A DNA stretch of 64,000 nt from Stegostoma tigrinum (taxonomy: Eukaryota), in assembly GCF_030684315.1 (NCBI RefSeq), contig NC_081359.1, positions 12,176,127 through 12,240,126 of the forward strand, given 5' to 3'. Of the stretch, positions 243 to 55,233 are shown in pieces. The translations under genes were made by a program, and so were the position numbers. The notes beneath the pieces are model-generated. The model made no database searches. It worked only from the letters and a program-made list of their open reading frames with translations, and had not been told where the DNA came from. How positions within the stretch are numbered: position 1 is the first letter of the stretch; every line of letters begins with the position of its first letter.

Positions 243-452
243 AAAAACCGAAAGAACTGTGGACGCTGTAAATCAGGAACAAAAACAAAGTTGCTGGAAA
301 AGCTCAGCAGGTCTGGCAGCATCTATGGAGGACAAAACAGAGTTAACATTTAGGGTTCTGAAGAAGGGTCACCGGACGCGAAACGTTAACTCTGTTTCCT
401 CCTCCATAGATGCTGCCAGACCTGCTGAGCTTTCCCAGCAACTTTGTTTTTG
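243..452. mobile_element. Palindromic (inverted pLTR pair) non-coding PLE derivative, family B
   Basis: Arm ~279-351 is the near-perfect reverse complement of ~381-452. An extra ~36 nt tail (243-278) is present on one arm only. The same sequence recurs at 53642-53785 and 55001-55233. Confidence 0.8.
352..393 (+). ncRNA. Minimal type I hammerhead ribozyme motif (PLE family B)
   Basis: agggtt-CTGAAGA(358-364)-A-gggtc/accg/gacgc-GAAA(380-383)-CG-TT-aactct. Helix I has 6 bp including one G.U; helix II has one mismatch; helix III is the palindrome ACGT. Confidence 0.7.
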
Positions 453-462
453 TGTATGTGAA

Positions 463-532
<70 letters not shown>

Positions 533-550
533 TGTATAGTGTGGTGGGGG

Positions 551-724
551 TCACCTGTAGTGTGACATGAACCCAAGATCCTGGTCGAGGCCGTCTTCAT
601 GGGTACCGGACTTGGCTACCAGCCTCTGCTCGGTGACTCTGTGTTGCTGTGTATCCCAAAGGGCGTCTCGGAGGATGCCGACCCAAAGATTCAAGGCCAA
701 AAGCCCTTGAATGCTGAAGCATTC
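551..724 (-). mobile_element. PLE (family C) C-terminal GIY-YIG endonuclease remnant
   Basis: Manual translation ECFSIQGLLALNLWVGILRDALWDTQQHRVTEQRLVAKSGTHEDGLDQDLGFMSHYR* resembles the PLE endonuclease C-terminus (HF..GHS...R..EQ.LI..F.T..GLN.D.GF). Confidence 0.7.
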
Positions 725-727
725 CTA

Positions 728-1165
728 CTTTTGGAAATAAAATCAGCCTGACTCCAAGTTAAAACGCAGACAGATTCTGAACAAGGCCTCACACCTAAAA
801 TGCATTATCTAAGCTGAGATGAACACATCTGGTATATTGATAAAACCTTTAGTTATCACAGGGCAGCAACTTGATATAAATTCTGGGATTTATGTATCAA
901 TCAATCGAAAACTGCGTTTCCTTCTTAACTGATTAAAGATTTAACAGACATCTTACATTTGTTCAGTAGAATTGCATCAGTTCTGTGACCCTTTGGTCTT
1001 TTACTTGTAAAATCTGAGTCTGATGCCACCTCCCTCACTATCACCTGAAGAAGGAGCAAGACTCTGAAAGCTTGTGTTTTCAAATAAACCTGTTGGACTA
1101 TAACAGTGTTGTATGATTTTTGACCCTGTCTGCACCAGTCCAACATCAGCACCTCCGCATCATTC
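728..1165 (+). mobile_element. PLE family C 3' region/pLTR, inverted relative to 551-724
   Basis: Contains a hammerhead core followed by aaataaacctgttggactataac, which is shared with 27597-27779. Confidence 0.65.
1042..1076 (+). ncRNA. Minimal type I hammerhead ribozyme motif (PLE family C)
   Basis: cac-CTGAAGA(1045-1051)-A-ggag/caaga/ctct-GAAA(1066-1069)-GC-TT-gtg. Helix I is cac/gtg and helix III is the palindrome AGCT. Confidence 0.7.
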
Positions 1166-1169
1166 CACA

Positions 1170-2319: not shown

Positions 2320-3050
2320 TGAATGGTCATTCTTAAATGAAATCTAATACAGATAAATGTGATGCATACAATTTGACAGGGAGAATATGTCAATCTCTTA
2401 ATACTTGAAATGTGAAAATCCAGAAAAACATAATGTCAGTCCATAAATACATAAATCACTGAAAGTTGGTGCTTCAGGTTAGCAAGACCCAGAAAGCAGC
2501 AAACCTAATACAACTTATTTCTTGTGGGATAGGCATGAAAATTAGTGAAATTATGCTAAACCTGTTTCAACTAGATCACACTTGGAGTACTACCTGGGTG
2601 TCCTAGTCTCCCTCCAATGTGGAGCCATCGACGAGGATGGAGAGATCATTTGTAAAAATGATTTCAGAAATGGGTACATTTCAACATACATATCAACAAA
2701 GGATTTAAACTTCAATCTCTGAAGGATGGCCTGACAAATCTGTTTCAAACTTGAAAGAGTTTCCTTAGGGTGGGTAGAGAAAGAAGCTTCTTCTTTTGGG
2801 GAAAAGCATAACTAGAGGCTATTAATATGATCATCAAAACATCAATTAGGAATCCACAAGAAATTGCTTCACCCAAAGAGAGTGGTGACAATGTGGAATA
2901 TGCTACTAGGCGGTGTGGTTGCTTTGCATATTCTAAATGCATTTTAAGGAGATGGCCTGTGTAGATGACAGAAGTTGGGAGGAGGCCTAAGTGGAGTATA
3001 AGCATCAGCCTCACTTGGTTGAGCTGAGAGGCCCATTTCTGCGCTGAATG
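2320..3050 (+). mobile_element. Old degraded CR1 3' fragment
   Basis: Residual CR1 motifs (aatacagataaatgtga, cacacttggagtac, cccaaagagagtggtg, 3' tail-like ggcccatttctgcgctg). Confidence 0.55.
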
Positions 3051-5819
3051 TCATACAGATGTTAAATTCTAATTTGATTTTGTGGCAATCTATAATACCT
3101 TTTTTCATAGCTGACATCCTCTTCTAAGAATGTAGGCCTTGTCTGAAAAGTGTCTGATTCCTATGTATGAAGTCCAGGCAGCCACATTTTAATTTACCAA
3201 GAGAAGGCAAGATTTGAAGTTCAGTCTAAAGTGCTTGTAAGATACCACCCACTTGCTCCTCACTGAGAAAGAGTGGTTTCCCCATTATTACTCATACCTC
3301 GAGATCGGTATTGATGAAGAAGGTTGTTCTTAATTCATCCATTTTGGACAACAGGCGAGAAAGCTGACTAGTCCCTATCAATGCATTTTCAATATTCCAC
3401 CAATACATACTCACAATTGCCCATTAGATGTTTTCTAGGGGTTCATCTCCACCTCCTCGTAAGCCCATTCTTATTGTTGGTCAGCATATCAATCCTCAAG
3501 ATGTATACAACTGCTTTCAAGCTGTGTCCCATTGTTCTACTTCCACTGCTTATTTATGTACTATTCTGGATTAACCATCCAACATCAGAAACCTGCAGGA
3601 ATTCACAGTTTCTTTCCAATACCAGAATAGTTGGGGAGGGGGTGGTTAGAAAGTTCAGCCCACTATTACCTTCCTGAGCACTACGTTCCATCCTGATATT
3701 GAGGAAAACATGAGCAACCACATTAAAAAAAAAGCAATTGGGTCATCATTTTAAAAATACCCAAACAGCTAACAGATGTTACTTACAATTCTGCCTGGAA
3801 TTAATGCTTGCTGCAAGCAGTAAACATGTGTTGGGACAGGAGTAATTTAGTTTTCCACATCAGTCAGTGAAATGACTAGTGGCTGTGTTGTTACCAGATC
3901 AATACATGCAACACATTTCTGACATATTTCAGAAGACTAATGTTCCATTTATTCATTCATTTGTTGTCTTTCCAATGAGAGTTAGGGAGTTAAACTGAAG
4001 CTCTGTATTTATTTAAGTAGATTGTGTAAATTGATACAAAAATTGTATTATCATTATAAAATATAACATTGAAAATATTCAACAAAGTACAAAATATTGA
4101 GTCAATTAAAATTGAATATTATTAAATTATACCATAATGCAAATAATATTAGTCTAAATAAATATAATTAATACATACTAGGATAAAGTTTTGACCTTAT
4201 GAATGATCAGCAGTTCAGGAACCAATTGGGAAATTAATGTGAATTTATTGCTTAAGTTTCCACTTCAACTCATTTGCTCACTTACAAATTTAAAATCTTC
4301 TACAAACCGCATAATTGGGCAATGTTTTCAAAAAGTAATTGTGTATTTTCATTTTCTTGCTTTAAAAATACTCCTTGATATTTTTAAGAGTCTTGGCATC
4401 AAGCAGTTTCATAAATAGGGCTGAAAATGGACTTAAAATAAAAATGTGTTTTAATTAGGATTTCTATTCCTCCATCTGATAATCATCTAACCAACTGAAA
4501 ATAACACAAAAAACTTTACCGAAAACCATTTGTTTAGTTTATTTGGTGTGTACAGTCAACTTTTTAGGAAATTAACTATAGTTTATAGATGTAAATTTAA
4601 ATGTAAATTATTCAATCTAGATAATTTTGCCATCTGCACAAGATGTAAAAGAGATCATAAATTGTTAAAAGAAAACAAACTTTCTTCTACAATTTAAAAA
4701 CTGACTTTGCTGGACTAGAGTGGCTACTGCAGACTGCAATGATTCACAAGTTGACCACAATCCGGAAACATCCAACTGTTATAACGAGCACAAAGCGGAA
4801 CAAATTCATGTTGTGGAATTTCTCACCTATTACTTGCATGGGTGGTGCAAAATCAGAGAGACATTGAGAGAAAACTCTGGATTGATAACAAAAGGAGACA
4901 CATCACAATGCAAACACTAACCACTATCAGGCAACTGTTAAAGTGAGCAATGGGTTTTGACCACTATCATAGAAATACCTTGTTCATTAAACTGAGTCAT
5001 CTATGGACAGCATTACATCAGCAACTGCTCTGGCCTTTTCAAGAATCTTTAAATTATACACTTCTGAAACCTTGTCTCAACCTACTTTTAACATTCAGCC
5101 CATCAGCAGCAGGAGACAGGGCTCCAGACTGCTACTCAATTCTGCCTCACATCCAAATCTCCTTCAAGCTTAGTCCTGGAAAATCCTTGTATTTTGCCTA
5201 CAAAGACAAATAATCTTGCTGCATCATCTCCAACTTCAAAGGAGTTCCACCATACCCTGCCTTCAGCTACCTGGGCATATTTCATTCCTGAGTGAAGAAA
5301 CCCTCACTGGATGCTTTCATGTAAATTAATATCTATATGTTTATTGTTTCAATATTCAAAAAGGTGATTTTTTTCTGTGTCCTTTGTATGTGCATGTATA
5401 AGTGCATGTGTGTAAAGTTGTAAAGACTGCCTGGTTTGAATGTGTGAATAAATAATGCTCCTTGTTTAAACTTGACAGTTTGTTGTGACCAGCACAAAAC
5501 ACACCACAGCCATCTCAAATGCTGATAGAAGTAGTCTTCAACCAAATGAAGGGAGACTGTTATCAGTCAACGAGCAGTGTCCAACCTCAGTCCAGGGGCT
5601 TTAGACATGGTCAGCTTGCTCCTTGGGTGGTCAACAACAAAACGTTCTGTATTTTACATTCCCAGGATTAGACCTTGATAACTGCTACAGATTCAGTACA
5701 ACGACTCATGGAACTAATGCTTAAGTCAAGGTCTTAATCACGAGATGACAAGTGTGTTTGCTTGCTGAAGATTGTGCAATATTCAATATCAATTGCAACT
5801 GTTCAGGTATTGAAGGATG

Positions 5820-6440: not shown

Positions 6441-6449
6441 ATGAAATGA

Positions 6450-6575
6450 AATAGGAAGGGTTTGGAGAGATATGGGCCAAATGCTGGATTAATTCAGGAT
6501 ACCCAGTTGGCATAGCTGAGTTGGACTGAAGGGTTTATTTCTGTGCTGGGTATCTCTGTAAATCTATGACTGTAA
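6450..6575 (+). mobile_element. CR1/HER1 3' tail
   Basis: aggaagggtttggagagatatgggccaaatgctgg...gagttggactgaaggg...ctatgact matches the other CR1 tails in the window. Confidence 0.7.
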
Positions 6576-13470: not shown

Positions 13471-14895
13471 TAACAAGGTGTAGAGCTGGATGAACACAGC
13501 GGGCCAAACGGCATCAGAGGAGCAAGAAAGCTGATATCTTGGGCCTAGTCCCTTCTTCAGAAATGGGGGAGGTAAGAAGGTGAATAGGGAGAGAGGGGGA
13601 GGCGAACAGAAGATGGATAGCGGAGTAGACAGGTGGAGAGGAGACAGACAGGTCAAAGAGGTGGGGATGGAGCCAATAAAAGTGAGGGAGGAGATAGGTC
13701 AGTTTAGGGAGGACGGACAGGTCAAGGGGGTGGGATGAGGTTAGTAGGTCAGAGGTGGGGATGGAGCTAGAGGGAGGAGGAGGGGATAGAAGGGAAGAAG
13801 GACAGGTTAGGGAGGTGGGGATGAGCTGGGCTGGTTTTGGGATACGGTAGGGGGAGGGGAGATTTTGAAGCTTGTGAAGTCGACATTGATACCATTGGGC
13901 TGCGGGGTTCCCAAGCGGAATATGAGTTGCTGTTCCTGAAACCTTTGGGTGGCATCATTGTGGCACTGCAGGAGGCCCATGACGGACATGTCATCTGAGG
14001 AATGGGAGCGGGAGTGGAAATGGTTTGCGACTGGGAGGTGCGGTTGTTTGTTGCGAACTGAACAGAGGTGTTCTGCAAAGCGGTCCCCAAGCCTCCACTT
14101 GGTTTCCCCAATGTAGAGGAAGCCACAACGGGAACAGAGATGCAGTATACCACATTGGCAGATGTGCAGGTGAACATCTGATTGATGTGGAAAGTCTTCT
14201 TGGGGCCTGGGATGGGTGTGAGAGGGTAGGTGTAGGAGCAGGTATATCGCTTCCTGCGGTTGCAGGGAAAATTGCCAGGTGTGGTGGGGTTGGAGGGGAG
14301 TGTGGAGCAGACAAGGGAGTCACAGAGAGAGTCATCCCTCTGGAAAGCAAATAAGGAGGGAAAAATCAGTAAGGAGGGAAATATCTCTTTGGTCCTGGGG
14401 TCGGATTATAGATGGCGGAAGTGTCGAAGGATGATGTGTTGGATCTGGAGGGTTCAATATCTCCCCTCCTCCGACTGCATCCCAAAACCAGCCCAGCCCG
14501 TCCCTGCCTCCCTACCCTGTCCTTCCTCCCACTTATTCACTCCTCGCACCTTAAGCCCCATCTCCTCCCTAACCTCATCTGGCCCCCTTAACCCATCTGT
14601 CCTCCCTGGACTGACTTATCTCCTCCCTAACTCCTTATCTACACTCACCTTTACTGGCTCCATCCCCACATCTTTGACCTGTCTGTATCTTCTCCATTAT
14701 CCATCTTCTATCCACCTCTCCCTCTCTCCCTATTTATTTCAGAACCCCCTTCTCCTCCCCCATTTCTGAAGAAGGGTCTAGGCCCAAAACCTCAGCCTTC
14801 CTGCTCCCCTGATGCTGCTTGGCCTGTTGTGTTCATCCAGCTCAACACGTTGTTGTCTCAAATTCTCCAGCATCTGCAGTTCCTACTATCTCTAA
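13471..14895. mobile_element. PLE family A, inverted structure (minus arm 13471-14454 with frameshifted GIY-YIG; plus arm 14455-14895 pLTR)
   Basis: FTCTSANVVYC and MGLLQCHNDATQRFQEQQLIFRLGT on the minus strand. Both arms end in the same pLTR and carry decayed hammerhead cores. Possible degraded TSD acaattaattta/acagataattta. Confidence 0.9.
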
Positions 14896-15494: not shown

Positions 15495-16431
15495 TTATAT
15501 AGGTTTGCAGAGGGTCCAGTTTAGTTTGGAATTATGATTGTCGTGGCCACTTTGGGCCGAAGGATTTCCTTCCATGCTGTATTTCTCTCTATGAATACTT
15601 GCCTGATGCATACAGGTCTGAGAACCATACCAGTGTGGTGGCTCTCCAGCACTGAACTCTGTGGAATGCCATTGGAAGCTGACTTCCAGCCACAGAGATA
15701 TTCCTCTACCATCATCTGCCTCTCGACCAAGATTGGATCCAACGTGCACTTTGCCTCGGAACTCATGACCCTTACTTTTTTGACCTAAAATGGAAAATAC
15801 TGGAGAAATTCAGCAGGTCTGGCAGCGTCTGCAGAGAAAAAGCAGTATTAATGCTTCAGGCCAGGTGACCCTCTTCAGAACTTGCTGAGTTTCTCCAGCA
15901 ATTTCTGTTTCTTTTTCTGATTTCAAAAATCGGCAGTCTTTTTGTTTTTTTTAACTTTTTTGACCAGTCTACAACAAAGCACCTTTTCAAAAGCCTCGCT
16001 AAAGTTTATATAAATCACATTAATATATTACCCACGTTAAGTCTACTGGTTATCTCCTCAAAACATTTGATCAAATTTGTCAAACATAACATTCCCTAAC
16101 AAATCCATGCTGACTTTCTGTGATTAATCTATGTCTCACCAAGTGCAGATATATTCTGTCTGTCAGAATTCTTTCAAATAACTTGTCCACTGCCAAGATT
16201 AGACTGACCGGCCTGTAATTTCTTGGCCTATCCTTTCATCCCTTTTTCAAATTTTGAGACAATGTCAACAATCCTTTCCAACTCTGGCACCTCACCTGCA
16301 GCCAGAGAGGATTTAAAAATTAATGCCAGAGCCCCTCATATCTTCTCCCTTGATTCCCTCAACAGCTTAGGATGCCTCGCATCTGACCTGTGGAGCTATC
16401 CCCATTTCAGGGCTGCTAAATCCTCTAGCAC

Positions 16432-16432: not shown

Positions 16433-16471
<39 letters not shown>

Positions 16472-16492: not shown

Positions 16493-17379
16493 GTTAATTT
16501 CCTATAATATTCCACAGTCCTCTTCTCTGATGTCTATTTATTGAAAGCTGGGCATTTCCTTGATGCATGCAGAAAGTCACAACTTCCACATGTCTTGCTC
16601 TGTTTAGATGCTGCAATGACCATCGAGTTTGTGCTGGGCACTTGTGAACTTCACCAACCATTAAAGATTAATTCATACTTATGTCGATGCTTCCTTAGAT
16701 TTTACAAGAGATCTTCATCTTATCCATCAAATCTTTTTCGAATACGTCTATGGAATTTGCTCACTTCCCATCAGAAGAAGGAATCACACAATGAGCCCTT
16801 TCACTGCAACTGTTCACATAGTGGTCTGTGAATTCTGTAAGCTTCTGTCTTAATGACATGAATTCTAGTCAATGAATGCTGAAGTCTAATCTGGTTCTGA
16901 ATTGGTGCCCTAACCATTTAACTCTTCAGTTATTAATCCTGATGTGTTAAATTTGAGTTCACCTTCATTCTTAACTACTAAGTATAACCTACTGACTTGC
17001 TTTTCTGTATCGCTCACCCAAATCTTGAAAGCTGAACACTAAACAATGTTTATAACATTTTAACAAAGTGTGGAGCTGGATGAACACGGCAGGCCAAGCA
17101 GCATCTCAGGAGCACAAAAGCTGACGCTTCGGGCCTAGACCCTAGATCACAGAGGGGGATGGGGTGAGGGTTCTGGAATAAATAGGGAGAGAGGGGGAGG
17201 CCGACTGAAGATGGAGTGAAAACAAGATAGGTGGAGAGGAGAGTATAGGTGGAGAGGTAGGGAGGGGATAGGTCAGCCCAGGGAAGATGGACAGGTCAAG
17301 GAGGTGGGATGAGGTGGTAGGTAGGAAATGGAGGTGTGGCTTGAGGTGGGAGGAAAGGATGGGTGAGAGGAAGAACAGG

Positions 17380-18063
17380 TTAGGGAAGCAGAGACAGGCT
17401 GGGCTGGTTTTGAGATGCAGTGGGGGGAGGGGACGAACTGGGCTGGTTTTGTGATGCAGTGGAGGAAGGGGAGATTTTGAAGCTTGTGAAGTCCACATTG
17501 ATACCATTGGGCTGCAGGGTTCCCAAGCGGAATATGAGTTGCTGTTCCTGCAACCTTCGGGTGGCATCATTGTGGCACTGCAGGAGGCCCATGATGGACA
17601 GGTCGCCTGAGGAATGGGAGGGGGAGTTGAAATGGTTCGCAACTGGGAGGTGCAGTTGTTTGTTGCGAACCGAGCGGAGGTGTTCTGCAAAGCGGTCCCC
17701 AAGCCTCCGCTTGGTTTCCCCAATGTAGAGGAAGCCACACCGGGTACACTGGATACAATATACCACATTGGCAGATGTGCAGGTGAACATCTGCTTGATA
17801 TGGAAGGTCATCTTGGGGCCTGGGATGGGGGTGAGGGAGGAGGTGTGGGGGCAAGTGTAGCACTTCCTGCAGTTGCAGGGGAAGGTACCGGGTGTGGTGG
17901 GGTTGGAGGGGAGTGTGGAGTGGACAAGGGAGTCACGGAGAGAGTGGTCTCTCCGGAAGGCAGATAAGGGTGGGAATGGAAAAATAGCTTGGGTGGTGAG
18001 GTCAGTTTGTAGATGGCGGAAGTGCCGGAGGGTGATACGTTGTATCCAGAGGTTGGTGGGGTG
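17380..18063 (-). pseudogene. 5'-truncated but stop-free PLE linker plus GIY-YIG endonuclease frame (227 aa)
   Basis: HPTNLWIQR...AFRRDHSLRDSLVHS...PCNCRKCYTCPH...NVVYCIQCTRCGFLYIGETKRRLGDRFAEH...HFNSPSH...RLQEQQLIFRLGTLQPNGIN. VVY-YIG, CxxC..H..H and the conserved R/E/N residues are present; the RT is absent. Confidence 0.9.
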
Positions 18064-18068
18064 TTATG

Positions 18069-18517
18069 TCACCTGCACATCTGCCAATGTGGTATATTGT
18101 ATCCATTGCACCCGGTGTGGCTTCCTCTACATTGGGGAAACCAAGTGGAGGCTTGGGGACCGCTTTGCAGAACACCTCTGTTCAGTTCGCAACAAACAAC
18201 TGCACCTCCCGGTTGTGAAACATTTCAACTCCCCCTCCCATTCCTCAGACGACATGTCCATCATGGGCCTCCTGCAGTGCCACAATGATGCCACCCGAAG
18301 GTTGCAGGAGCAGCAACTCATATTCCGCTTGGGAACCCTGCAGCCCAATGGTATCAATGTGGACTTCACAAGCTTCAAAATCTCCCCTTCCCCCACTGCA
18401 GCCCAAAACCAGCCCAGTTCTTCCCCTCCTCCCCTTACTGCATCACAAAACCAGCCCAGCTCATCCCCTCCCCCCACTGCATCCCAAAACCAGCCCAGCC
18501 GTTCTCTGCTTCCCTAA
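18069..18517 (+). pseudogene. Second (inverted) copy of the GIY-YIG endonuclease coding region
   Basis: TCTSANVVYCIHCTRCGFLYIGETKWRLGDRFAEH... in ORF 17873-18517. Confidence 0.9.
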
Positions 18518-19969
18518 CCTGTTCTTCCTCTCACCCATCCCTTCCTCCCATCTCAAGCCGCACCTCAATTTCCTACCTACCACCTCATCCCTCCTCCTTG
18601 ACTTGTCCATCTTCCCTGGACTGACCTATCTCCTCCCTACCTCCTCACCTATACTCTCCTCTCTACCTATCTTGTTTTCTCTCCATCTTCGGTCCGCCTC
18701 CCCCTCTCTCCCTATTTATTCCAGTTCCCTCTCTCCATCCCCCTCTGTAATGAAGGGCCTAGGCCTGAAACGTCAGCTTTTGTGCTCCTGAGATGCTGCT
18801 TGGCCTGCTGTGTTCATCCAGCTCCACACTTTGTTATCTTGGATTCTCCAGCAACTGCAGTTCCCATTATCACTGATACAATTTGTAACATTTTAATTCT
18901 GTTAGGATCTCCCAACATAAATTCAAGGATTTTGCAATCTCTCTGCTAATATGCCTTCAGCCTTGCTTCTTTGCTACTGATGTAACTTGCATACCAGTCA
19001 CTTGACTTTCTCAATTTGAGGTAAATGGAATTTGTTTATTATGGATTTATCTGCTTACCAGCAAGCAGAGTTTCTAACACTCCCTATCACAGTAATGAAC
19101 AAAGTTGTCAAGAGTCGTCTCATGCACTTTAGAATGATTGCTGTCAAACATTTGTTTCACCTGTACATTAACTTCCTTACATAGGTTCAAGCACTATAGG
19201 CTCCATCAGCATGATAATGTCCACAGTTGCCAAGTCGTGTTAATGATAATGCGCCAATGATCAATTTCAGTTCAGGGATTCATTAATTGCTTATTTTTTT
19301 CCCTTAAAACAGCAAAACATATTGCAAGTTGTGCAGCAGACATTACAGTAAAATGAATGATTTCCGTATGTGCAGATTGCATTCTGACAAGCAGCAAATA
19401 AATGGCTAGACAGCGCTGTGTTATAATATGAACACAGCGCACGGAGTCCCTAAGCGTGAACTGACTGAAAAGCAACGGACACATATAGCATAGAGCACCT
19501 CTCTCTTTGTACCTCCTTCATCTGCAAATGCTGACCTGACCATTCCACATCAATGCTGTGGATAGTGATTATCTCCCTCCTCTGATAAACTGACAAACAC
19601 GCCCAACTGCTTCCAAACTGATGTTGTCAGTTCAAAATCTTCCAAAGTTGAAAAAAGCCAAAACCTAACTAGCACACTCTGCCAAAGAAAATAGAAGTAG
19701 CAGCTGCGATTCATAAACTTTTATTCAGCTCGGACAATGACAGATTGAAGTAGCCAGAATCCTGTGCACCAGATGTTGTGGTCATGCCCACCAGAACCAT
19801 CTCGGATGTCTTGGTTAAATTCAATGCTATCAATCCTTCTCAATGTTATCAGTGTAAGCTACCAGCACCAACTGTGGAATGATGCCTGAAGTAAGGCTTC
19901 AGCAGAGGAGAGGTCCAGTCTTATTAAATAGAATAGATTTATTATATGGTACTTAGATGGATCTCAGAC

Positions 19970-20280: not shown

Positions 20281-21427
20281 GTTGACACCCCTCTGATAGC
20301 TAAATCTGCAACACCCAGAGAGGAGCACCTTGCCTAATAATCTGGTAAAAAGGAGTGAGAAAAGTGGTGTAACCTGCTTCTCAGCAACTTCTGGTAGTTA
20401 AATAAAACAAGGCTTTGACACCCACTTTACAATCAACAAATAACAATTGATTATCTAACTCTAATAGTGAACAAGGGAGAGCAGCAGGTCTGACAACACC
20501 CGAGGATCAGGGAAGGCAATATTTCACACCAAAACCATTTGTCAGGAATGACGTGCTGTGCATTTGCAGCTTCACATTTATTCACTGAATTTTCCAGCAT
20601 CTGCAGTCCTCCCTGTCTCTAACTATTAACAACCCCCTGAATAATCCCCTTGTAACTACTAACTATTCCCTAGTAAAAGAAGATTCTAATGGCATGCTGT
20701 TCCAATAGATACAGGTCCCACTTATATCAAGTAAAAAAAACACAGACTTTAGTCACTCAAAATTACAGCCAGATTACGCATCTTGCAGAATGCTCTGTGC
20801 CTTCTCTGTCAAAAGACCTATCAGGAATACTAGCTCATTGTGCTAGAGATGCCTTCGATTTAGATAGTGCATTATCTAAAACTTAGAGAAGACTGTGAGA
20901 GCTGGTGATTCTCTCTTGAGAGCTGAGAGATGTTAACTCTGGCAGACAGAAGTTACTTCTCTTGAATTTCCAACTGCCCTCTCCTTTCATACCCTTGATG
21001 ACATCTCAATTTCTTACAACAGGATTGGTTCTACGTTGTCAAAACCATCAGATTTAATTTTAGATTTAATCATCAGATGAAGGGTCTAGGCCCGAAACAT
21101 CAGCTTTTGTGCTCCTGAGATGCTGCTGGGCCTGCTGTGTTCATCCAGCCTCATATTTTATTATCTTGGATTCTCCAGCATCTGCAGTTCCCATTATCAC
21201 AGATTTAATTTTAGTTGGTTTTTGGTCTCTGAGTGCCTGATCCATATTGATTGGCCAAAATCAAGCGAAACTGCTGCTTGGCCTGCTAACTGTATAGCTT
21301 TTTGATTCAAGTGTTTCAATTTGAGGGTTCTCTGTGCAGGCACAAACCCACAAGCTGCTGTCTGCAGACATTTTGTTTAAACCTCTGAGCATGGAAAAAG
21401 CACATAATCTTTAAGAGGGACCACACA
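20281..21427 (-). mobile_element. Possible solo LTR containing two PLE pLTR insertions (~20476-20620 and 21064-21199)
   Basis: LTR-like composition only; termini and TSD not established. Confidence 0.3.
21064..21199 (+). mobile_element. Solo PLE family A pLTR tip with decayed hammerhead and 15-bp TSD
   Basis: TSD cagatttaattttag at 21049-21063 and 21200-21214; core caGATGA-A-gggtctaggccc-GAAAC-atc. Confidence 0.85.
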
Positions 21428-27596: not shown

Positions 27597-27779
27597 GCCA
27601 GAAGTCACACAGCATCACATTATAGTCCAATAGATTTATTTGAAATCACAAGCTTTCAGAGCATAGCCCCTTCGTCTGGTGAAATGTGACTAATAAAATA
27701 AACCAGTTGGACTATAACCTGGTGTCATGTGACTTCTGACTGTCCACCCCAGTCTAACAGCAGTGCCTCCACAGCATGA
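27597..27779. mobile_element. Palindromic PLE family C derivative with 12-bp TSD
   Basis: TSD ccattcaactat at 27585-27596 and 27780-27791. Arms gaagtcacac..ttatagtccaa / ttggactataa..gtgacttc. Minus arm carries cac-CAGACGA-..-GAAA-GC-TT-gtg. Confidence 0.8.
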
Positions 27780-29060: not shown

Positions 29061-29280
29061 TGCATTTCCCACACATGGAAGACAAACAATGTTCAGAGAG
29101 CCACTCTCTGCAGTCTATTCTTCATTTCCCTCTGCAATAGCCTCTGCATTCGCAGTACCTGCTATGGCCTTTAAATGGACAGATTACCTACTTTGCAGTC
29201 ATCCCTGCATGGCAACCCTTCCAACAAAAGCCCACAATAATTCCAGTTCCTTTTGCAGCAGCAGACAACCTTTCATATGA

Positions 29281-29705
29281 TAATAAAATGTGAGGCTGGA
29301 TGAACCCAAACCAGTCCAACCTGTCTCTGCCTCCCTAACCTGTTCTTCCTCTCACCCATCCCTTCCTCCCACCCCAAGCCGCACCTCCATCTCCTACCTA
29401 CTAACCTCATCCCACCTTCTTGACCTGTCCGTCTTCCCTGGACTGACCTATCCCCTCCCTACCTCCCCACCTATACTCTCTCCACCTATCTTCTTTACTC
29501 TCCATCTTCGGTCCGCCTCCCCCTCTCTCCCTATTTATTCCAGTTCCCTCTCCCCTTCCCCATCTCTGATGAAGGGTCTAGGCCCGATACGTCAGCTTTT
29601 ATGCTCCTGAGATGCTGCTTGGCCTGCTGTGTTCATCCAGCCTCACATTTTATTATCTTGGAATTCTCCAGCATCTGTAGTTCCCATTATCTCTGATACT
29701 ATTTT
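29281..29705 (+). mobile_element. PLE family A pLTR with a 25-nt inverted 5' cap and 14-bp TSD
   Basis: TSD aacctttcatatga at 29267-29280 and 29706-29719. 29281-29305 is the reverse complement of 29631-29655. Core CTGATGA (29566-29572)...GATA (mutated from GAAA). Confidence 0.9.
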
Positions 29706-33017: not shown

Positions 33018-33484
33018 TACACCAGTTTCAAAATCTCCCCTTCCCCAAATGCATCCCTAAACCAGCCCAGTTCGCCCCCTCCCCCCACTGCACCACACAA
33101 CCAGCCCAGCTCTTCCACTCCACCCACTGCATCCCAAAACCAGTCCAACCTGTCTCCGCCTCCCTAACCTGTTCTTCCTCTCACCCATCCCTTCCTCCCA
33201 CCCCAAGCCGCACCCCCATCTACCTACTAACCTCATCCCACCTCCTTGACCTGTCCGTCTTCCCTGGACTGACCTATCCCCTCCCTACCTCCCCACCTAC
33301 ACTCTCTCCACCTATCTTCTTTTCTCTCCATCCTCGGTCCGCCTCCCCCTCTCTCCCTATTTATTCCAGAACCCTCACCCCATCCCCCTCTCTGATGAAG
33401 GGTCTAGGCCCGAAACGTCAGCTTTTGTGCTCCTGAGATGCTGCTTGGCCTGCTGTTTTCATCCAGCCTCAGATTTTGTTATCA
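33018..33484 (+). mobile_element. PLE family A 3' end/pLTR
   Basis: TSFKISPSP... C-terminus and pLTR similar to 18360-18840. Confidence 0.9.
33388..33423 (+). ncRNA. Minimal type I hammerhead ribozyme motif (PLE family A), intact core
   Basis: CTGATGA(33392-33398)-A-ggg/tctagg/ccc-GAAA(33412-33415)-CG-TC(33418-33419). GUC triplet and palindromic ACGT helix III; helix I is only 2 bp locally. Confidence 0.7.
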
Positions 33485-38454: not shown

Positions 38455-39623
38455 CAGTGTCCCAGTGCAGAGCAAGGATACCAGCCCAGTGCAGAACGGG
38501 GAGAACAGCCCACTGCAGAGCAAGGATAACAGCCCAGTGTGGAGCCGGGATAACAGCCCAGTGCAGAGCGGGGATGCCAGCCCACTGCAGAGCAAGGATA
38601 ACAGCCAAGTGAAGAGCAGGGATCACAGCCCAGTGCGGAGCGGGGATAACAGCCCAGTGCGGAGCGGGGATGACAGCCCAGTGCGGAGCGGGGATAACAG
38701 CCCAGTGCGGAGCGGGGATGACAGCCCAGTGCAGAGCAGGGATAACAGACAAGTGAAGAGCAGGGATCACAGACCAGTGCGGAGCGGGGATAACAGCCCA
38801 GTGCGGAGCGGGGATAACAGCCCAGTGCGGAAGGAGATAACAGCCCAGTCCGGAGCAGGGATCACAGCCCAGTCCGGAGCAGGGATCACAGCCCAGTGCG
38901 GAGCGGGGATAACAGCCCAGTGCAGAGCAGGGATAACAGCCCAGTGCAGAGCGGGGATAACAGCCCAGCGCAGAGCAGGGATAACAGCCCAGTGCGGAAG
39001 GAGATAACAGCCCAGTCCGGAGCAGGGATCACAGCCCAGTCCGGAGCAGGGATCACAGCCCAGTGCGGAGCGGGGATAACAGCCCAGTGCAGAGCAGGGA
39101 TCACAGCCCAGTCCGGAGCAGGGATCACAGCCCAGTGCGGAGCGGGGATAACAGCCCAGTGCAGAGCAGGGATCACAGCCCAGTGCGGAGCGGGGATAAC
39201 AGCCCAGTGCAGAGCAGGGATAACAGCACAGTGCGGAGCGGGGATAACAGCCCAGTGCAGAGCGGGGATAACAGCCCAGTGCAGAGCAGGGATCACAGCC
39301 CAGTGCGGAGCAGGGATAACAGCCCAGTGCAGAGCAGGGATAACAGCACAGTGCGGAGCGGGGATAACAGCCCAGTGCAGAGCGGGGATAACAGCCCAGT
39401 GCAGAGCAGGGATCACAGCCCAGTGCGGAGCAGGGATAACAGCCCAGTGCAGAGCGGGGATAACAGCACAGTGCAGAGCAGGGATAACAGCCCAGTGCAG
39501 AGCAGGGATAACAGCACAGTGCGGAGCGGGGATAACAGCCCAGTGCAGAGTGGGGATAACAGCACAGTGCGGAGCGGGGATAACAGCCCAGTGCGGAGCG
39601 GGGATAACAGCACAGTGCAGAGC
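38455..39623. repeat. 24-bp GC-rich minisatellite, ~48 copies, consensus GGATAACAGCCCAGTGCRGAGCRG
   Basis: Directly visible. Two 23-bp units (at ~38831 and ~38998); higher-order blocks of 144 and 167 bp. Confidence 0.97.
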
Positions 39624-39807
39624 GTGGTGGTAGCCAGCATCCAGACCACCTGGATGGCCCTTGCGTTGGCCTGCTGCAGAGAGCTTTTGCAGAGAGTCTG
39701 TGATGTTTGCCTTTTTAACTTTGCTTCTTGTTGTTTTCTATGCTATATAGTTATACCGTGTATAGCTGTATTGTAACTTTTTTCTTAATTTCTCTTTTCT
39801 TTAAAAG

Positions 39808-42730: not shown

Positions 42731-43519
42731 TTGCTCTGAAGTTGGAGTGATAATGAATTTAGGTTGAAGTTTCTTTTAGATTTCTTGGGGAGGGATTCCA
42801 ACTGGAGGAATAATATCAAGTGAATGCTCAGAAATTTGCAAGAACAAAGCCAGTTCCAGCTATGCCAGCCTGAGAGTGGAAATAGTCGTGGCCCATCAAT
42901 GACATTTGAGCATTGAAAGGAACACGTTGGGATAAAAGGAGTAGATTGAAGGTGAACTTTTTTCCCCCTCTGGTGCTTATAAAGAAGTCTGCGCAATCTT
43001 TCTGTTTAGTGTAATATATTTCAATTTCTTTTCTTTTACCCAATAACTGCTTTAGTTTTTGTGCCAAAAGTATAATGTCAGTGTTTTGCGACATCTACAA
43101 TTTAGAAAAAACGAAATTAAAATCTAAAAAGCCAGGATTCACTCTGCAGCTGCAGACTGGGTGGGGGCCATAGTTTAAAGAAAGTTAGAAATGGCATGCA
43201 AATTGTATCACTGTCAACAACGCCGTCGTCTGATGCTTTGACATCATCAGATTAGTGATGTCCTGGTAAAGAGAGCGAAATAATTTGCAGCATTCATGTC
43301 GCTTTGCAACTAGGTAAGTCTACAAATGTGGCAAATGTGGTTTACATGTGGTATATTTAAAAAGGGTTAATAAAAGAGGACATTTTCTTTTACAAGCTAA
43401 TTCCTCATTGAACAACAGCTGAGGAGATTTTCTACTTGCTTGATAAGTTCATCACTGAAGATAGGATTTCATGCTTAAAATGTGTTGGACTTTGCACTGA
43501 CAGCGCAAATTCAGTGACA

Positions 43520-43740
43520 CATGCAGAGAATGAGCTGCCAGAGGAAGTGGTGGAGGCTGGTACAATTACAACACTTAGAAGGCATCTGGATGGGTATATG
43601 ATTAGGAAGGGTTTAGGGGGATATGGGCCACTTGCTGGCAAATGGGACTAAATTGATTTAGGAAATCTAGTCAGTGTGGATGAGTTGGACCAAATGGTCT
43701 GTTTCCGTGCTGTACAGCTCTACAACTTAATGACTATGGC
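43520..43740 (+). mobile_element. CR1/HER1 3' end
   Basis: NELPEEVVEAGTITTLRRHLDGYM..KGLGGYGP followed by the tail. Confidence 0.88.
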
Positions 43741-43959
43741 ATGGAGGCACGATGGATTGGTGACATACATTGTTTGGAGAAATGTATTTGTAAAGACACT
43801 ATACTGTCATGTACTGTCTGTTGTCATCTCTGATCCATTTACTGAACCTTTCTGCACTTCGGAGCACACATCCGCTTATCCTTTCAAGTGCAAGCAGTGT
43901 CCTTGCATCAACATTGCAAGGATAAGTGGACGTGTGCTCTAAAGGAGAACAGGCCCAAT

Positions 43960-44320: not shown

Positions 44321-45011
44321 CACTGGCTCTGCTCTATTTAACCTACTCTTTACCTTCAGAAACAATTCAGGTTTCTAATCTGTCATGACACTTGCTGAAC
44401 TGCACAATTCCAATGTTCTCCGGCTTGACCAAACATCTTTCACCCTCAATCATTTAGATGTAATTTAAGGGAGCAGTTGATGTGCTTAGTATACAGACAC
44501 TTAAGGAGAAGTTGGCCAAGCATGTGAGGAAGAAGGGAGAAGCTTGTTGAGATTGTAGATTTAAATGACGTGGAGAATTCCTTTTTTGTTTCATTGATTT
44601 GTGATTCAGGAACCAGCACATAGTCAATACTGTAGTATTCAGAGAGCGGATAGTTCCAAAGAAGATATGAATATTCTCTGATATTAGTTACATTAAATGC
44701 TGCCTAGGAAGAAGAGCAAGTTGTTGCAAAGTTTTCAGTATTTCACTCAAAATAGTTTAGGGAGGGACTGTTCTGAGCTCATAGTTACTTGGTGAAGAAG
44801 ACAGAGACAGAAGCAAGAAAGTAACTTTTGAGCTATAGTGTTGAACGGGAACTCGACTGCACTATTAGAGATTGCATTTGAGGTCAAGAGCGGTTGGATA
44901 TCTGCACTGTTAGAACTCAGGAGAATGTTCTGAGAGTTAGTTGGCAGCTTTATGTTGGAGCCAAAGCTCAGGAATTCTGGGGTTCTGAAGAAACCATGTG
45001 CCATTAATACT

Positions 45012-45110
45012 GAAAACCACAAATGCTGGAGATCACAGCAGGTCAACCTGCATCCATGGAGAGAGAGAGCAAGCTAAGTTTCAAGTCTAGATGACACTCC
45101 ATCAGAGCAG
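45012..45110 (-). mobile_element. PLE pLTR tip with decayed hammerhead
   Basis: Reverse complement gct-CTGATGG-agtgtcatctagactt-GAAAC-ttagc...gacctgctgtgatctccagcattt. Confidence 0.6.
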
Positions 45111-46029: not shown

Positions 46030-46680
46030 GAGACTTCTTCCTACTTCCTCCTAGATGATGACCCTCATGGAATATCAAACCATTGTTTCCAGGAAAGTCA
46101 CTAAGTCATATCCTCTGGAAATCTTCCCTCCACAGCTTTCCGATTCATCCTGAACAGCCCTGTCCTTCCCAAAGCCCACAAACAGGATTTCCTGGTCGTC
46201 TCATTGTTTCAGCCTACTCCGGTCTGAGTGAAGTAATTTCTTCCCACATCACGTCATTTGTCCAGTCTCTTCCTTCCTTAATTTTTGATTTTTCTGCTGC
46301 TGTATGTCATTTTCCAACAATCTTCAGTTTGCTGGCCTGAACCACTGCAAATATCTCTTCAGTTCCAACTTTCGCTGGCCCAAACAGTTCCTAGCCACCA
46401 TCAAATTCTTTACCTGGCTGAACTTGTTCTCATATCAAACAATTTCTCCTTTAACTTCCTCCAAATAAATGTAGCTATGGATACGCGCACGAGTCCTCAT
46501 TATGATTGAAGGGTATTTTCTGAAGCAGGGTCTAGACCCAAAATGTCAGCTTTCCTGCTCCTCTGATGCTGCTTGGCCTGCTGTGTTCCTCCAGCTCTAC
46601 ACCTTGTTAACTCTGTCTTTGTTATGACTGTCTTTTTAGTGGGGAATATGAAATGTTCCTTGTTTCATTGCTTTTTAGCA
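46030..46680 (+). mobile_element. Degraded PLE reverse transcriptase, interrupted by a family A pLTR tip (46509-46621)
   Basis: PGRLIVSAYSG..VQSLPS and LAELVLISNNFSFNFLQINVAMDTRTSPHY match PLE RT motifs (PGRPIVS, NNFSFN..GVAMGT..PSYA). Flanks ttatgattg/ttatgactg look like a TSD. Confidence 0.7.
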
Positions 46681-47074
46681 GAACATCAAGACACCCATGC
46701 AAAAACTCCTCTATCCACCCTAACTCTTATTTTCCAGTACCATTTTGAAATGGTGATAGCCACAGGAGATTCCCACACTGCCTGCCTATCTCTCCTACTT
46801 TAGTAGAGGTAACCCATCTACACAACTATCTGCAGTCATCCATCACACCCCAGGGTTCCTATAAATTGCTCATTGCCTCTAAGTGCCATTCGAACCGATC
46901 CATGTGATCTGATAGGATTCACAACCAAACATACCTTGTGCAGATATAGCCATTAAAATTTTCCCTAACTTCCCACATCCAGCAGGAAGAGCGCATCAGC
47001 CTGCTAGCAGCCAACTCTGCACTTTAATCTGCAGGCTCAGAAAATAGCACAGTCCTACTGCTCTAAAAACAATT

Positions 47075-47345
47075 TTAAGATGGGAGGCGAAAAATACAAA
47101 AGGGACCTAAAGGGGCAATTTTTTCACACAGAGAGTAGTGCATGTATGGAATGAGCTGCCAGAGGAGGAGGTGGATGTAGGCACAATTACAACATTTAAA
47201 AGGCACCTGGATGGGTATATGAAGAGGAAGAGCTTGGAGGAGTATGGGCCAAAAACTGGCAAATGGGACTAAATTGATGTAGGATATCTAGTCGGCATGG
47301 ACGGGTTGGATCACAGGATCTGTTTCTGTGCTGTACGTGTCTGTG
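47075..47345 (+). mobile_element. CR1/HER1 3' end
   Basis: tggaatgagctgccagaggagg...aaatgggactaaatt, as at 43520-43740. Confidence 0.85.
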
Positions 47346-48769
47346 GCAATGGCAGTACATCAATGATTACATCAGCTCTGTTACCAAGTCTCACTTGGAA
47401 ACAGAATTACAAATTTAAGGTAATTTCCCTCTGTCCGCATGTTGAAGATGTTGCCAGATCTTCACTGTATCTCCAGCATTTTCTGTATTCATCTCAGATT
47501 TCCAGCATCCAGAGTATTTAGCTTCTGCGTGATATAACCAGTAGGTAATTGTTGATCTCTGTGCTTTATCCAGAAATCAGCCTGACATTCTGCTGAATCA
47601 GCACATCGTTCTAATTTCCAGCATAGTGTTTGAGAAAAGTACATTGAAACAGGTTAGAAGCTTTATCTTATGTCAAATTTTATAAGATCCATCACTGCCA
47701 CAAGTACTTATTCATAAAATCAACTCGACAGCATGATCAGTGCATTCACTCATTCGGGACTAACTTCAATGAGGATATTTTGTGAACCTGTTGGACCACA
47801 TTGCTGTAGTAGGCTTATTCTTGGTTTGAGATGCTGCATTTACTATTTTGCACTGCTGTCAACAGCTATCCAAAACAATAGGTTTTCAAGGACATCTCTG
47901 GAATAGGCAACTCCCATCTGAACAATTCTAAGCCCTATTGATTGAAGTAGTGGCATTCACTGCCTGAAAGACAACAGTTAACAATTTCCCAGTCACAACA
48001 AAAGATTGTTATTCCTACAAATAACTTCCTTATATTTCACGTTAGAGTGGCTTTAAAGAAACAAGCTTTAGTTTGCATTCATAAATAACATTATTAATTT
48101 TATAGAATTATTCTGCAGTAATGCATTACATGGGGATCATGCAAAACAATGTCCTTCCTCTATGCAGTCCCAATCAAGCTGATTTGACTTGCTTTGCTTT
48201 TGTGGGTTAATGATAAGATGAAGAGATCTGCACCATCCTGGGAGCACTTTAACTTAAGATGGGGGCCGGTTCTATTCTTGTGTTTAGTATGCTAGACCGC
48301 ACATGTTCATGTCAGTCTCTTCGCCAAACTGATGCTGGGCTGAGCTGTTTACATAATATTCTAATTGTTACTGTTCTTCGCACCAACCTGAATGGGAGTT
48401 CTATACACACTGCCTTAATTGTTGCCTGTGATATAGCCTTGACTGATCGTTTAGGGATGTCCTGGCAAACAATCTTTCATCTAGGTATGGTTTTATAACA
48501 TCACTACTTTGTCTACATAGCCAAAATTCCAAAGCAAAGTGAAGTTATTCAATTGTTATCAGCTGAATTTTTGGTTGACTATTATTCCCACTGATTACAT
48601 TGAACACAAACTGCTGTTCCAATGAAGTTTATTATCAGCTGCATTACGTTTACTTCAACAGCATTTACTTTTTGACAAAATATCTGCACAGGGTGGGGAA
48701 CGGTGACTTTCCCAACTCTAACATGAGTATATGGTTGGCTGGTAAACCACATCTGGTAATAGACATCTG

Positions 48770-50869: not shown

Positions 50870-50981
50870 TACTGAAGAGGTCAGCTTTCCTGCTCCTCTG
50901 ATGCTGCCTGGCCTGCTGTGTTCATCCAGCTCCACACTGTGTTAGCTCTGACTCCAGCATTGACAGTTCTTACTACCTCTC
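50870..50981 (+). mobile_element. PLE family A pLTR tip (hammerhead helix II deleted)
   Basis: ctgaaga-ggtcagctttcctgctcctctgatgctgcctggcctgctgtgttcatccagc. Confidence 0.75.
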
Positions 50982-52680: not shown

Positions 52681-52892
52681 AAACAAGCAAGGGAGTTGTA
52701 TTTCAGAGAGACAGAATTAAATCTGCTGTAGAGGAAGTTTGAAAATAGTGCGAAGACAGTTGCATCCAGCCAATGTGCAACTATGCTTGAAAATGTTGGA
52801 GTTATACTTGCAAAAATTACCACTCAATCACAAAACTGATGAATACCAACTGAGGTGGTAATGAATGCAGGAAGTGGTTTGAAAATGTGAGA
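52681..52892 (+). pseudogene. Decayed Myb/SANT-like DNA-binding domain (Harbinger ORF2-like)
   Basis: KQARELYFRETELNLL/EEV...AKITTQ...*GGNECRKWFENVR. The TGA and TGG codons are explicable as CpG decay of Arg codons. Confidence 0.5.
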
Positions 52893-53641
52893 ATATATGC
52901 TGAGGAAATGATTGCCTCGAATTTCAAACATTGTTGATGTAGTTGGATCAGGATCAGCAAGCCGACAGTTCATGAATCTCATTGAGGAAAAAATAGAACG
53001 ACATTTCAGATTGAGCTCATATGCATAGAAGTAAACTAAGTTCGGTTGCAAATTTTAACTTGCTAAACGTTTCTATAAGTCTTAAAGTAATAATTTTTAC
53101 ATATTAGCTGAAAGCTAGCTTCTGATACAGAGCTCTGTGTATTAGGACCGCGAATATGTCTACTGCTATAGCTGCTTATGTAAACTATCTATCAGATTTC
53201 TAGTGAAGTTACAATGGCTGGAAATAATTCTAAGTGACTTCTCGCTCTTAGAATGACAATTTTCAGCATGACTTAGCATGATCCTAGCTGATAATTGTAC
53301 AGGAGAGGTCAAATTCCAGAGTGAAACCTGGCTTAATAGACAATAAGTTTTATTTTTGAAATTTGGCTACCATAGTGGTCCGTCACAATGCATATTCATA
53401 AGAGGATACAATTTAATACAATAGCAGCAAAACTAATAACAGAACAGAAAAGAAAGAGGTGTATACGTGGAACACAATTTGGGAAGATCTTACCATAAAC
53501 AGCAAAAATACTCAATCCTTTTTCTCTCAACAGCTTCTTTTACAGACACTCAAATGCAGTGACATATCACATATTTCATAACTTTCTTAACCATAAGCCA
53601 AGGTAACAAACAGTTCTTTTAGGCAACTTTCAATATATTCA

Positions 53642-53785
53642 GACCCAAAGGTCCTCAGGAATGGTCACCGGACCCGAAACGTTAACTCTGTTTTTTCCTT
53701 CACGGATGCTGCTAGACCTGCTGAGCTTTTCCAGCAACTTTGTTTTTGTTCCTGATTTACAGCATCCGCAGTTCTTTCGGTTTCT
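53642..53785 (+). mobile_element. PLE family B pLTR
   Basis: ggtcaccggacccGAAACGTTaactctg... closely matches 367-452; the 5' core is decayed (ctcagga). Confidence 0.85.
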
Positions 53786-53809
53786 TCAATCTCTCACTGA
53801 GGTACGCAA

Positions 53810-54769
53810 TGTTATGGACCAGACCAGGCCCCCTCAAAATATTTTAAGAAGGTAGCCGAGACCCTAACTTTTTCTTATTTTAAAGGTCAATGCGAAGATG
53901 TTCCAGATGCAATGTGATCGGTCAAACTACTCAACATTAAGCAAAACGCAATTTATTTAAACACTTTAGTTAAAATACAAACAAAAGAAAGTGGAAATTA
54001 GACCAATTTTATTGGAAATCTTAACCAAATGATAAACGCAATACCTATTACTAATTAACTATTCCAAAATAGTACTATCCCATAAACACGCTCCTTGGCC
54101 GAAAGGCAAATTCAGTCACAAAATATTACATGCAGTTGTCCAGTCCCAGAGGAAACAAAAAACCAAGAGAAATTTCAGCTAACATAGCAGCTAGGAGTCA
54201 TTCAGTGAAGCCTCCAGCTTTATAAGAATCCAATGGCTTCTGATGCTATCGAGAAAACCAAAACCCTAAAATCTGGATCTGTGAGCACTGACCATACCCA
54301 TTTAACCTGCTTCCATTGTTCCAACTTAATAAGAACTCAAGACCTACTAACCTCATCCCGCCCCCTTGAACTGTCCGTACTTCCTGGATGGACCTATCCC
54401 TTCCCTATCTCCCCACCTACACACACCTTTACTGGCTCCATCCCCACCTCTTTGACCGTCTGTCTCCTTTCCACCTATCTTCTCCTCCATTTATTTCAGA
54501 ACTCCCTTCCCTCCCCCATTTCTGAAGAAGGGTCTAGGCCTGAAACTTCAATCGTCCTGCTCCTCTGATGCTGCTCAGCCTGCTGTGTTCCTCCAGCTGT
54601 ACATTTTGTTAAGTCAGATTCTCCAGCATCTGCAGTTTATACTATCTCTGTTAAGGCCTCACAAGCTGTTTACCTAAATCACTTCCAGTAGCCACTTCAG
54701 CACCTCTGCCTTACAACCTGGCTTAAAAAGACAAGACAAATAACCTTTCAAAGTGACAGTATCATCACG
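53810..54769 (-). mobile_element. Probable solo LTR (Gypsy-like) with nested PLE pLTR
   Basis: Termini TGTTATG...CATCACG, 4-bp flanks gcaa/gcag and tttatt-like poly(A) signals (minus strand). Confidence 0.45.
54341..54650 (+). mobile_element. PLE family A pLTR with hammerhead-like core
   Basis: CTGAAGA(54522-54528)-A-gggtctaggcct-GAAAC-ttc; similar to 14570-14895. Confidence 0.85.
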
Positions 54770-54958
54770 GCAGACGCAGACGAACTCACTGATTTTTCTC
54801 ACTGAACTCTAAAGATTATTTTCCCTGGCACTATGACTGATTTTAGGCTGTGAAACAGCACAACTGTTAGTATCAGTCTTTACCTCTGAATTGAACTTGC
54901 TTCTGGTCTCTGACCTGTTTTCCCCCGGGTCATATAGACGCAACTTGGTAAATACTTA

Positions 54959-55233
54959 CACAACACAACAACAACAACAACAAAATCAACAGCAACAAGA
55001 ACAACAAAAACAGAAGTTGCTGGAAAGGCTCAGCAGGTCTAACAGCATCTGAGAAGGAAAAAACAGAGTTCACCTTTCGGGTCCCGTGACCCAAAGGTTC
55101 TAAGGAAGGATCGCTGCACCCGAAACTTTAGCTCTGTTTTTTCCTTCACAGATGCTGCTAGACCTGCTGAGCTTTTCCAGCAACTTTGTTTTTGTTCCTG
55201 ATTTACAGCGTCCGCAGTTCTTTTGGTTTTTAT
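54959..55233. mobile_element. Palindromic PLE family B derivative with (CAA)n 5' junction and 14-bp TSD
   Basis: TSD ttggtaaatactta (54945-54958) / ttggtatatactta (55234-55247). Arms 55003-55092 and ~55108-55196 are inverted; a ~37 nt tail is on the right arm. Confidence 0.85.

Follow-up and report, generated by a model that had tools for sequence, protein, structure and literature searches.

The stretch of Stegostoma tigrinum DNA analyzed here (contig NC_081359.1, positions 12,176,127 to 12,240,126; 64,000 nucleotides, denoted the window) contains many short repeats with hammerhead ribozyme cores. This raises the question of which elements the repeats belong to and what their ends reveal about the RNAs from which they were copied. 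The initial annotation had noticed about 15 such copies and assigned them to three families (A, B and C) of pseudo-long terminal repeats (pLTRs) of Penelope-like elements (PLEs). Our preferred reading, to which we give a probability of roughly three in four, is that they are minimal hammerheads in the pLTRs of three Neptune-type PLE families, located likely at the very 5' end of a capped RNA. It is carried by the observed link to PLEs, the conserved core, the covarying helices and the distributions of the 3' and 5' ends of the copies. Both the class of ribozyme and the elements that host it are already published; what is added here is the abundance, a 5'-end pile that often follows an extra G, a smaller pile at the predicted cut site and the pairing of tailed with untailed arms.

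A BLAST search with family seeds detected 23 pLTR pieces in the window, 17 of which include the hammerhead core region (A, nine; B, five; C, two; and one of a further variant, F), close to the number first estimated. The three cores singled out at the outset, 358-387 (B), 1045-1073 (C) and 33392-33419 (A), were all found in place, each reading CTGANGA, an extra A, helix II, GAAA, a loop-less ACGT or AGCT, and TH. In the family B example, place and core held, but the 3' arm of helix II proved to be GACGC and not GACCC, leaving one mismatch; the 10.1-11.1 pair of the family C core is G-T. Most hammerhead copies are decayed. A strict descriptor is passed by one of the 17, the family A core at 33392-33419, and has no match over 200 shuffles of the window. 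An Rfam scan of the window gave no hammerhead family match at E values up to 5; its three matches are all unrelated, two of them being the hairpin at 319-413.

We numbered positions from the first core base, C3, taken as 0, so that in family A the 5' end produced by the predicted cut falls at +28, and we built consensuses from 5-120 copies per family. All of them keep CUGANGA, GAAA and UH in type I order and also show an extra base between 9 and 10.1, G10.1-C11.1 and a palindromic, loop-less helix III (ACGU or AGCU), with CpG-type decay at single positions in the C, E and F consensuses. Helix II has 4-5 base pairs (bp), and helix I has 2 bp in A, 4 in B and 3-5 in C. The covariation check proposed in the initial annotation for helices I and II found the core kept in every family consensus and all 35 of 35 helix cells paired (five core-anchored positions in seven consensuses), with three to four pair types per position; even the 2-bp helix I of family A covaries across families. 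Shuffled consensuses pair 21.7 cells on average and none of 200,000 reached 35, a significance inflated by the relatedness of the families. Pairs were counted on the core-anchored consensuses, as a MAFFT alignment of real copies had misaligned rows for C and D.

By their core, extra base, helix III and covarying helices, the motifs are minimal type I hammerheads of the class described by Cervera and De la Pena (2014; PMC4209133), who reported them in metazoan PLE pLTRs, including those of the fish elements Xena, Poseidon and Neptune; here and below, comparisons concern the compared portions of each publication. The likeness covers type I topology, the extra base 9/10.1, G10.1-C11.1 and the loop-less palindromic 15.2-16.2, as well as the occurrence of several consensus families per genome, mostly as single copies and sometimes close together on opposite strands. 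Family A differs in having a helix II of 4 bp and a helix I of 2 bp, as compared with the published typical 7-8 and 4-5 bp, and a 2-bp helix I is also on record for the D. virilis hammerhead (PMC4209133). A search of two of the three supplement files of that paper found no shark, skate or Callorhinchus entry.

Two further hammerhead features deserve mention. The helix II of the intact family A copy (window 33400-33411) is a 12-nt self-complementary stretch with a CUAG loop that pairs between molecules in the predicted dimer; such pairing could either initiate dimer formation or act as a rival to the active fold. A family D hammerhead, absent from the window, has a two-part helix I, an extra U and a predicted helix I pairing of 0.47. 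It was represented by 15 core-bearing copies in the 1.14-Mb sample described below (loci including L015, L022, L049, L055 and L066), and no open reading frame (ORF) was found alongside it in five loci.

The proposal that these pLTRs belong to PLEs was supported by GIY-YIG remnants 5' of the window family A copies, by a near full-length element, by related ORFs upstream of families B and C and by the covariation across families. Frames upstream of family A at 13.5-14.9 kb and 17.1-18.9 kb match GIY-YIG in Pfam (E 1.5e-4 and 2.9e-4), the scores of the PLE domains being slightly below curated cut-offs, and CCHH and a C-x4-CxxC linker are also found in the frames upstream of window family A copies. 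The near full-length family A element (denoted L128; G000:C15, outside the window) is organized as pLTR-ORF-pLTR. It starts with an inverted 5'-truncated copy followed by the 5' pLTR, with a hammerhead at 2301; the ORF, from about 2468 to 5703, is in three broken pieces and contains DKG, reverse transcriptase (RT) motifs and GIY-YIG; the 3' pLTR, with a hammerhead at 5931, is followed by a partial tandem finishing in the tail. The C-terminal part matches 125 proteins of at least 728 residues, most with RT Pfam marks, and relatives of the ORF carry RVT_1 and GIY-YIG. The hallmarks of endonuclease-positive (EN+) PLEs are present, namely a single ORF combining RT with a GIY-YIG/CCHH endonuclease at its C terminus, and these elements also have pLTRs, a partial tandem, an inverted copy and a 30-40 nt tail.

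PLE coding sequence lies upstream of families A, B and C alike. In matched pieces, amino-acid identity to A is 48-66% for B and 26-31% for C, and hence, by sequence comparison, A and B are sister lineages and C is distant. The zinc-finger linker between RT and endonuclease (C-x2-5-CxxC) was seen in the translations of all three, and by the motif definitions of PMC8557442 the families would be Neptune-type, an assignment standing on motifs and not on a tree with named references, which weighs against it. As in Neptune EN+ PLEs (Craig et al. 2021, PMC8557442; Arkhipova et al. 2013, PMC3846280), there is a C-terminal GIY-YIG with CCHH, a C-x2-5-CxxC linker, a partial tandem, an inverted 5'-truncated copy, a 30-40 bp tail at one end, a putative TATA box and initiator in the pLTR, and palindromes at inverted junctions.

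To estimate abundance we counted the exact 28-nt family A core, which occurs 92,176 times in the genome, whereas the control occurs 0 times. In addition, we sampled 114 stretches of 10 kb (1.14 Mb) at round coordinates on large contigs, a sample that is not strictly random and from which 13 nonexistent stretches were dropped. The catalytic bases are retained in 81 of its 270 core-region copies, and the strict descriptor is passed by 49; 20 shuffles of the sample gave no match. Scaled to the genome, this corresponds to an estimated 0.76 million core-region copies (bootstrap 0.65-0.86), 0.23 million with the catalytic bases kept and 0.137 million (0.10-0.18) passing the strict descriptor, in agreement with the very large population claimed initially. 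These figures, 92,176 for identical copies and an estimate of about 137,000 for intact ones, contrast with about 4,000 in coelacanth and about 9,000 in Xenopus (PMC4209133), and published tandem retrozymes number at most 14,255, all counted by other descriptors. Rfam overlooks a motif of which this genome has about one per 4 kb.

To learn about the RNAs behind these copies we mapped their 5' ends, using 252 of the 273 family A pieces and leaving out 21 with short 3' ends or at locus edges. As many as 51 begin at -5..-1 (10.2 per nt), 38 begin in -299..-11 (0.13 per nt) and 49 reach -300. The pile persists in the 100 youngest family A copies (17 versus 14), and the 5' ends of family B form a pile of the same shape near the core. 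Genome-wide, 22,522 matches have a non-reference flank at -7/-6; by hand tally of the first 100, 26 begin at -4, 22 of them after a G, and 6 are long copies in which the C-run is shortened. At position -5, matches rich in short copies had 69 G, 26 T and 5 A (first 100 of 8,457, hand tally), compared with 23 G, 56 T and 21 A in long copies mutated there (hand tally), a G excess with Fisher p 4e-7. Because the partner arm of an inverted pair can template a G, we examined copies with unique flanks; those starting at -4 carry the G in 10 of 15 cases (p 0.0013).

A TATA-like box lies at a fixed distance upstream: at -34 in 60 of the 72 family A copies holding a box, at -33 in 6 of 9 in family B (51 examined), at -39 in 5 of 6 in family C (14 examined) and at -45 in 8 of 8 in family D (13 examined). 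In the window, the intact hammerhead belongs to an untailed family A 3' fragment (33020..33483, plus strand; 96% to L128), in which the box TATTTATT at 33358..33365 (plus), 34 nt ahead of the core, would be the promoter. The hammerhead (33388..33421, plus) would have its RNA start at 33388, with the core at 33392-33419, helix I formed by 33390-33391 and 33420-33421 (plus) and the predicted cut after 33419. The family B start fits what we take to be the initiator consensus, YYANWYY, with its A at -4. We rejected a splice acceptor as the source of the 5' pile (AG is present there in B and absent in A), and a strand transfer bringing the cap G into long copies finds no support in the 23 G and 21 A at -5. 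The extra G is likely a copied cap; an untemplated 5' G has been taken as cap copying for LINE-1 and SVA (PMC4859970). The internal promoter of Penelope in D. virilis is TATA-less (PMC2377424), and as distinct from the Neptune descriptions cited above, the TATA-like box is here tied to a measured 5'-end pile and an extra G.

The 3' ends fall into two groups, at about +92 and about +129, and the difference equals the known tail. We found 59 head-to-head family A pairs, 53 of them classifiable, and 49 of the 53 combine one tailed with one untailed arm (p 3e-11). Family A neighbors within 1.5 kb comprise 71 head-to-head, 20 tail-to-tail and 19 direct arrangements. These results resemble those for PAc, the Poseidon element of Anolis carolinensis, for which two RT start sites, cleavage of both strands and a preference for uncut RNA as the substrate were shown in vitro (Frangieh et al. 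2024, PMC11167929): the two systems share a pair of 3' ends separated by the tail and a hammerhead near the ORF start, and, on our reading, would share the cutting of both strands and a mainly uncut RNA template. Unlike Poseidon PAc, the families studied here have the linker zinc finger, and the family A ORF begins about 165 nt behind the first core base and not within the ribozyme; the portion of PMC11167929 compared describes no start-site or cut-site footprint such as those measured here. As a separate observation, nine matches to a family A piece that begins at helix III are spaced 208 nt apart (G000:C2:58043056-58044747) and form a local tandem array.

According to the preferred reading, transcription would start about 4 nt ahead of the core, 30 nt behind the TATA-like box, to give a capped RNA that starts at the helix I 5' strand. 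The element RT would initiate behind the hammerhead at either of two internal sites, the tail boundaries, as PAc does in vitro, and run off the 5' end of the RNA, with the cap copied as the extra G. Head-to-head pairs with one arm tailed would result if the two sites were both used for priming on the two nicked strands, and the copies would persist as 5'-truncated, solo and inverted insertions. For most short copies the template would be uncut RNA, while a minority of templates (on the order of 1 in 7 to 1 in 13 when set against the start pile) would likely have been cut by the ribozyme as a dimer, probably with help from protein and likely paired through helix III. Start, cap and cleavage are all read from DNA alone, the first of several points that weigh against this reading; the others are given below with the explanations that they favor. 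The footprints give exact predictions: a start at -4, a cap G, a cut at +28 and RT starts at about +92 and about +129. The huge family could serve as a natural experiment on whether PLE minimal hammerheads cut in vivo and on how PLEs insert and rebuild the pseudo-LTR.

Does family A RNA in fact get cut? We found that 3,454 genome-wide matches begin at +28, with two non-reference bases ahead, as compared with 261 starts at the control position +23, which is likewise a 4-nt palindrome (ACGT), but contains CpG. A fine map of the cut region, based on a hand tally of the first 100 of 7,214 matches with one excluded, gave 5, 7, 5 and 5 starts at +24 to +27, 15 at +28, 3, 2, 8 and 4 at +29 to +32, and 14, 15 and 16 at +33, +34 and +35. 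The local +28 peak has a Poisson p of 1e-5, or 0.015 without six doubtful rows. On these sequence counts we lean, by a small margin of confidence, toward cleavage as the cause of the +28 pile. A competitor, which we consider distinctly less probable, is that the family A hammerhead no longer cuts and is kept as a 5' untranslated region or protein-binding structure, the +28 pile arising from the AGCT palindrome and microhomology. Several of the counts fit it: +33 to +35 are as frequent as +28, the 15 starts at +28 include 4 microhomology joints and 2 ambiguous cases, perfect AGCT palindromes make up 61 of the first 100 cut-site matches, and the sample of 252 family A copies has no cut-site peak, with 4 at +27..29. 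In silico, family A also reaches the active form poorly: the pairing predicted for helix I is near 0 in A, as it is in B, against 0.28 in C, helix I of A has 2 bp, and its self-complementary helix II competes in predicted dimers. Insertion of PAc in vitro did not need cleavage (PMC11167929). Near-zero pairing agrees with the low activity reported for the class and with the protein dependence of PAc, whose hammerhead cuts when given protein (PMC11167929). Speaking for cutting, the neighboring ACGT palindrome has 13-fold fewer starts, all catalytic bases are kept and the 2-bp helix covaries.

Long copies pose a different problem. In L128 the 5' pLTR runs seamlessly from -137 through the core into the ORF, and an RNA starting at -4 alone cannot template it. 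Such copies might derive from cut and re-ligated circular RNA, as proposed in PMC4209133, in which case cleavage would matter more than the 5'-end count suggests. The long copies have no cap-derived G excess (the 23 G and 21 A given above) and no trace of strand transfer, and this is why circles, tandem read-through or a clean homology jump remain as ways to rebuild the promoter-bearing 5' pLTR. Read-through, or a jump that drops the extra base, would yield the same product and nothing in the data shows a circle. We regard the circular route as less likely than not; it is compatible with our explanation of the short copies.

The -4 pile itself might instead mark an RT stop, at the hammerhead fold or at the upstream C-run of a longer RNA, with the G supplied by terminal transferase or fold-back and without any promoter. 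We consider this improbable, even though in 71 of the 111 short copies the complement of an inverted partner could supply the G, G over all 40 unique-flank copies is marginal (16 versus 11 expected, p 0.058) and family B shows no clear excess (37 G, 12 C and 51 T in the first 100, hand tally). The pile falls past the structure and not before it, B has no C-run there, families A and B have TATA-like boxes about 30 nt upstream, those of C and D also being fixed in position, and the G is found in two thirds of the unique-flank copies at -4, as noted. Contig joint tables from four runs (X1-X4) included joints to -4/-5 with an extra G in 5/12 and 4/12 of the rows shown and +28 joints in 2/12 and 3/12; we did not count either as independent support, because X2-X4 are one sample, maybe the assembly source, and the rows were selected.

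A separate non-autonomous retrozyme or short interspersed element (SINE)-like family, spreading through ribozyme-cut RNA circles, is largely refuted: many copies are indeed just 95-135 nt long and hammerhead-bearing, and PLE-derived tandem retrozymes are present in one chondrichthyan sampled (bioRxiv 10.64898/2026.07.22.740005), but the short copies correspond to the pLTR found in coding elements from their own subfamilies and begin ahead of the core and not at the cut, direct neighbors are rare (19 of 110 adjacent A pairs), and the window holds no hammerhead-bearing tandem array and hence none of the two or more consecutive tandem units with hammerhead that define non-LTR retrozymes. In those retrozymes, too, non-coding repeats carry a type I hammerhead that stems from PLEs, yet they are head-to-tail tandems, whereas the pieces found here are dispersed, solo or head-to-head remains of coding elements. 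A literature search, with subscription papers, Repbase/Dfam and some supplements outside its scope, found no account of these families, of shark PLE hammerheads or of start and cut footprints. We regard as evenly balanced the wider proposition that the insertions are a fossil read-out of capped, uncut (-4 plus G) and ribozyme-cut (+28) germ-line PLE RNA, with in vivo cutting despite a 2-bp helix I and twin-priming run-off as the mechanism, in perhaps one of the most hammerhead-rich genomes.

The remaining copies in the window display the same range of forms. The family B hammerhead at 358-387 lies in an untailed pLTR arm (355..453, plus) that begins about 3 nt ahead of the core; its inverted partner is a tailed arm (243..356, minus) with its 5' end within helix II. 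The family C hammerhead at 1045-1073 lies in a 3' fragment (721..1162, plus) inverted relative to a family C element fragment (469..710, minus) with 73% identity to L133. Two larger inverted pairs belong to family A. In the first, a 3' fragment of an older subfamily with a GIY-YIG remnant (13472..14451, minus; decayed hammerhead from 13560 downward) faces a tailed arm (14462..14895, plus; decayed hammerhead 14766-14793). In the second, an untailed 3' fragment (17061..18069, minus; decayed hammerhead from 17150 downward), with a frame for the C-x4-CxxC linker and GIY-YIG/CCHH endonuclease at 17380-18063, faces a tailed arm with an endonuclease remnant (18069..18874, plus; decayed hammerhead 18747-18774). 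Compact inverted pairs are seen at 15800..15950 (old, B-like; decayed core on the minus arm), 27599..27773 (family C; minus-strand hammerhead 27678-27650 with one core change) and 55003..55235 (family B; decayed plus-arm hammerhead 55100-55129).

Short solo copies include one of family A that begins 1 nt ahead of the core (21073..21198, plus; hammerhead 21074-21101 with two changes), an older family A copy (46519..46608, plus; decayed hammerhead from 46520) and a tailed family B copy (53651..53786, plus; hammerhead 53654-53683 with two changes). Tailed family A 3' fragments are located at 29279..29694 (plus), where the fragment proper (29305-29694) is joined to a 30-nt inverted arm and the hammerhead (29566-29593, plus) has GATA in place of GAAA, and at 54342..54649 (plus; older, decayed hammerhead 54522-54549). 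Two family A pieces are coreless, a tail-side fragment (20554..20620, plus) and an older copy that begins a few bases ahead of the predicted cut site (50880..50980, plus). The fourth variant, F, absent from the families first listed, is a pLTR with a decayed hammerhead (45008..45105, minus).

Apart from the PLE copies, the window contains a 24-bp minisatellite (38461-39624; 48.6 copies, 88% matches) and a run of 158 N (56351-56508) with flanks resembling a short interspersed repeat; ARAGORN found no tRNA gene in the window. Dispersed 3' fragments similar to the RT of long interspersed elements (LINEs) lie at 30865-31335, 33500-33955, 43453-43743, 47074-47364 and 59834-60468; we take them to be CR1-like, and long ORFs similar to them occur at sampled loci L012, L019 and L024. 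At a further locus, L113, a frame at 3-482 (minus) near a family C copy resembles a serpin N-terminus and would be a host gene exon.

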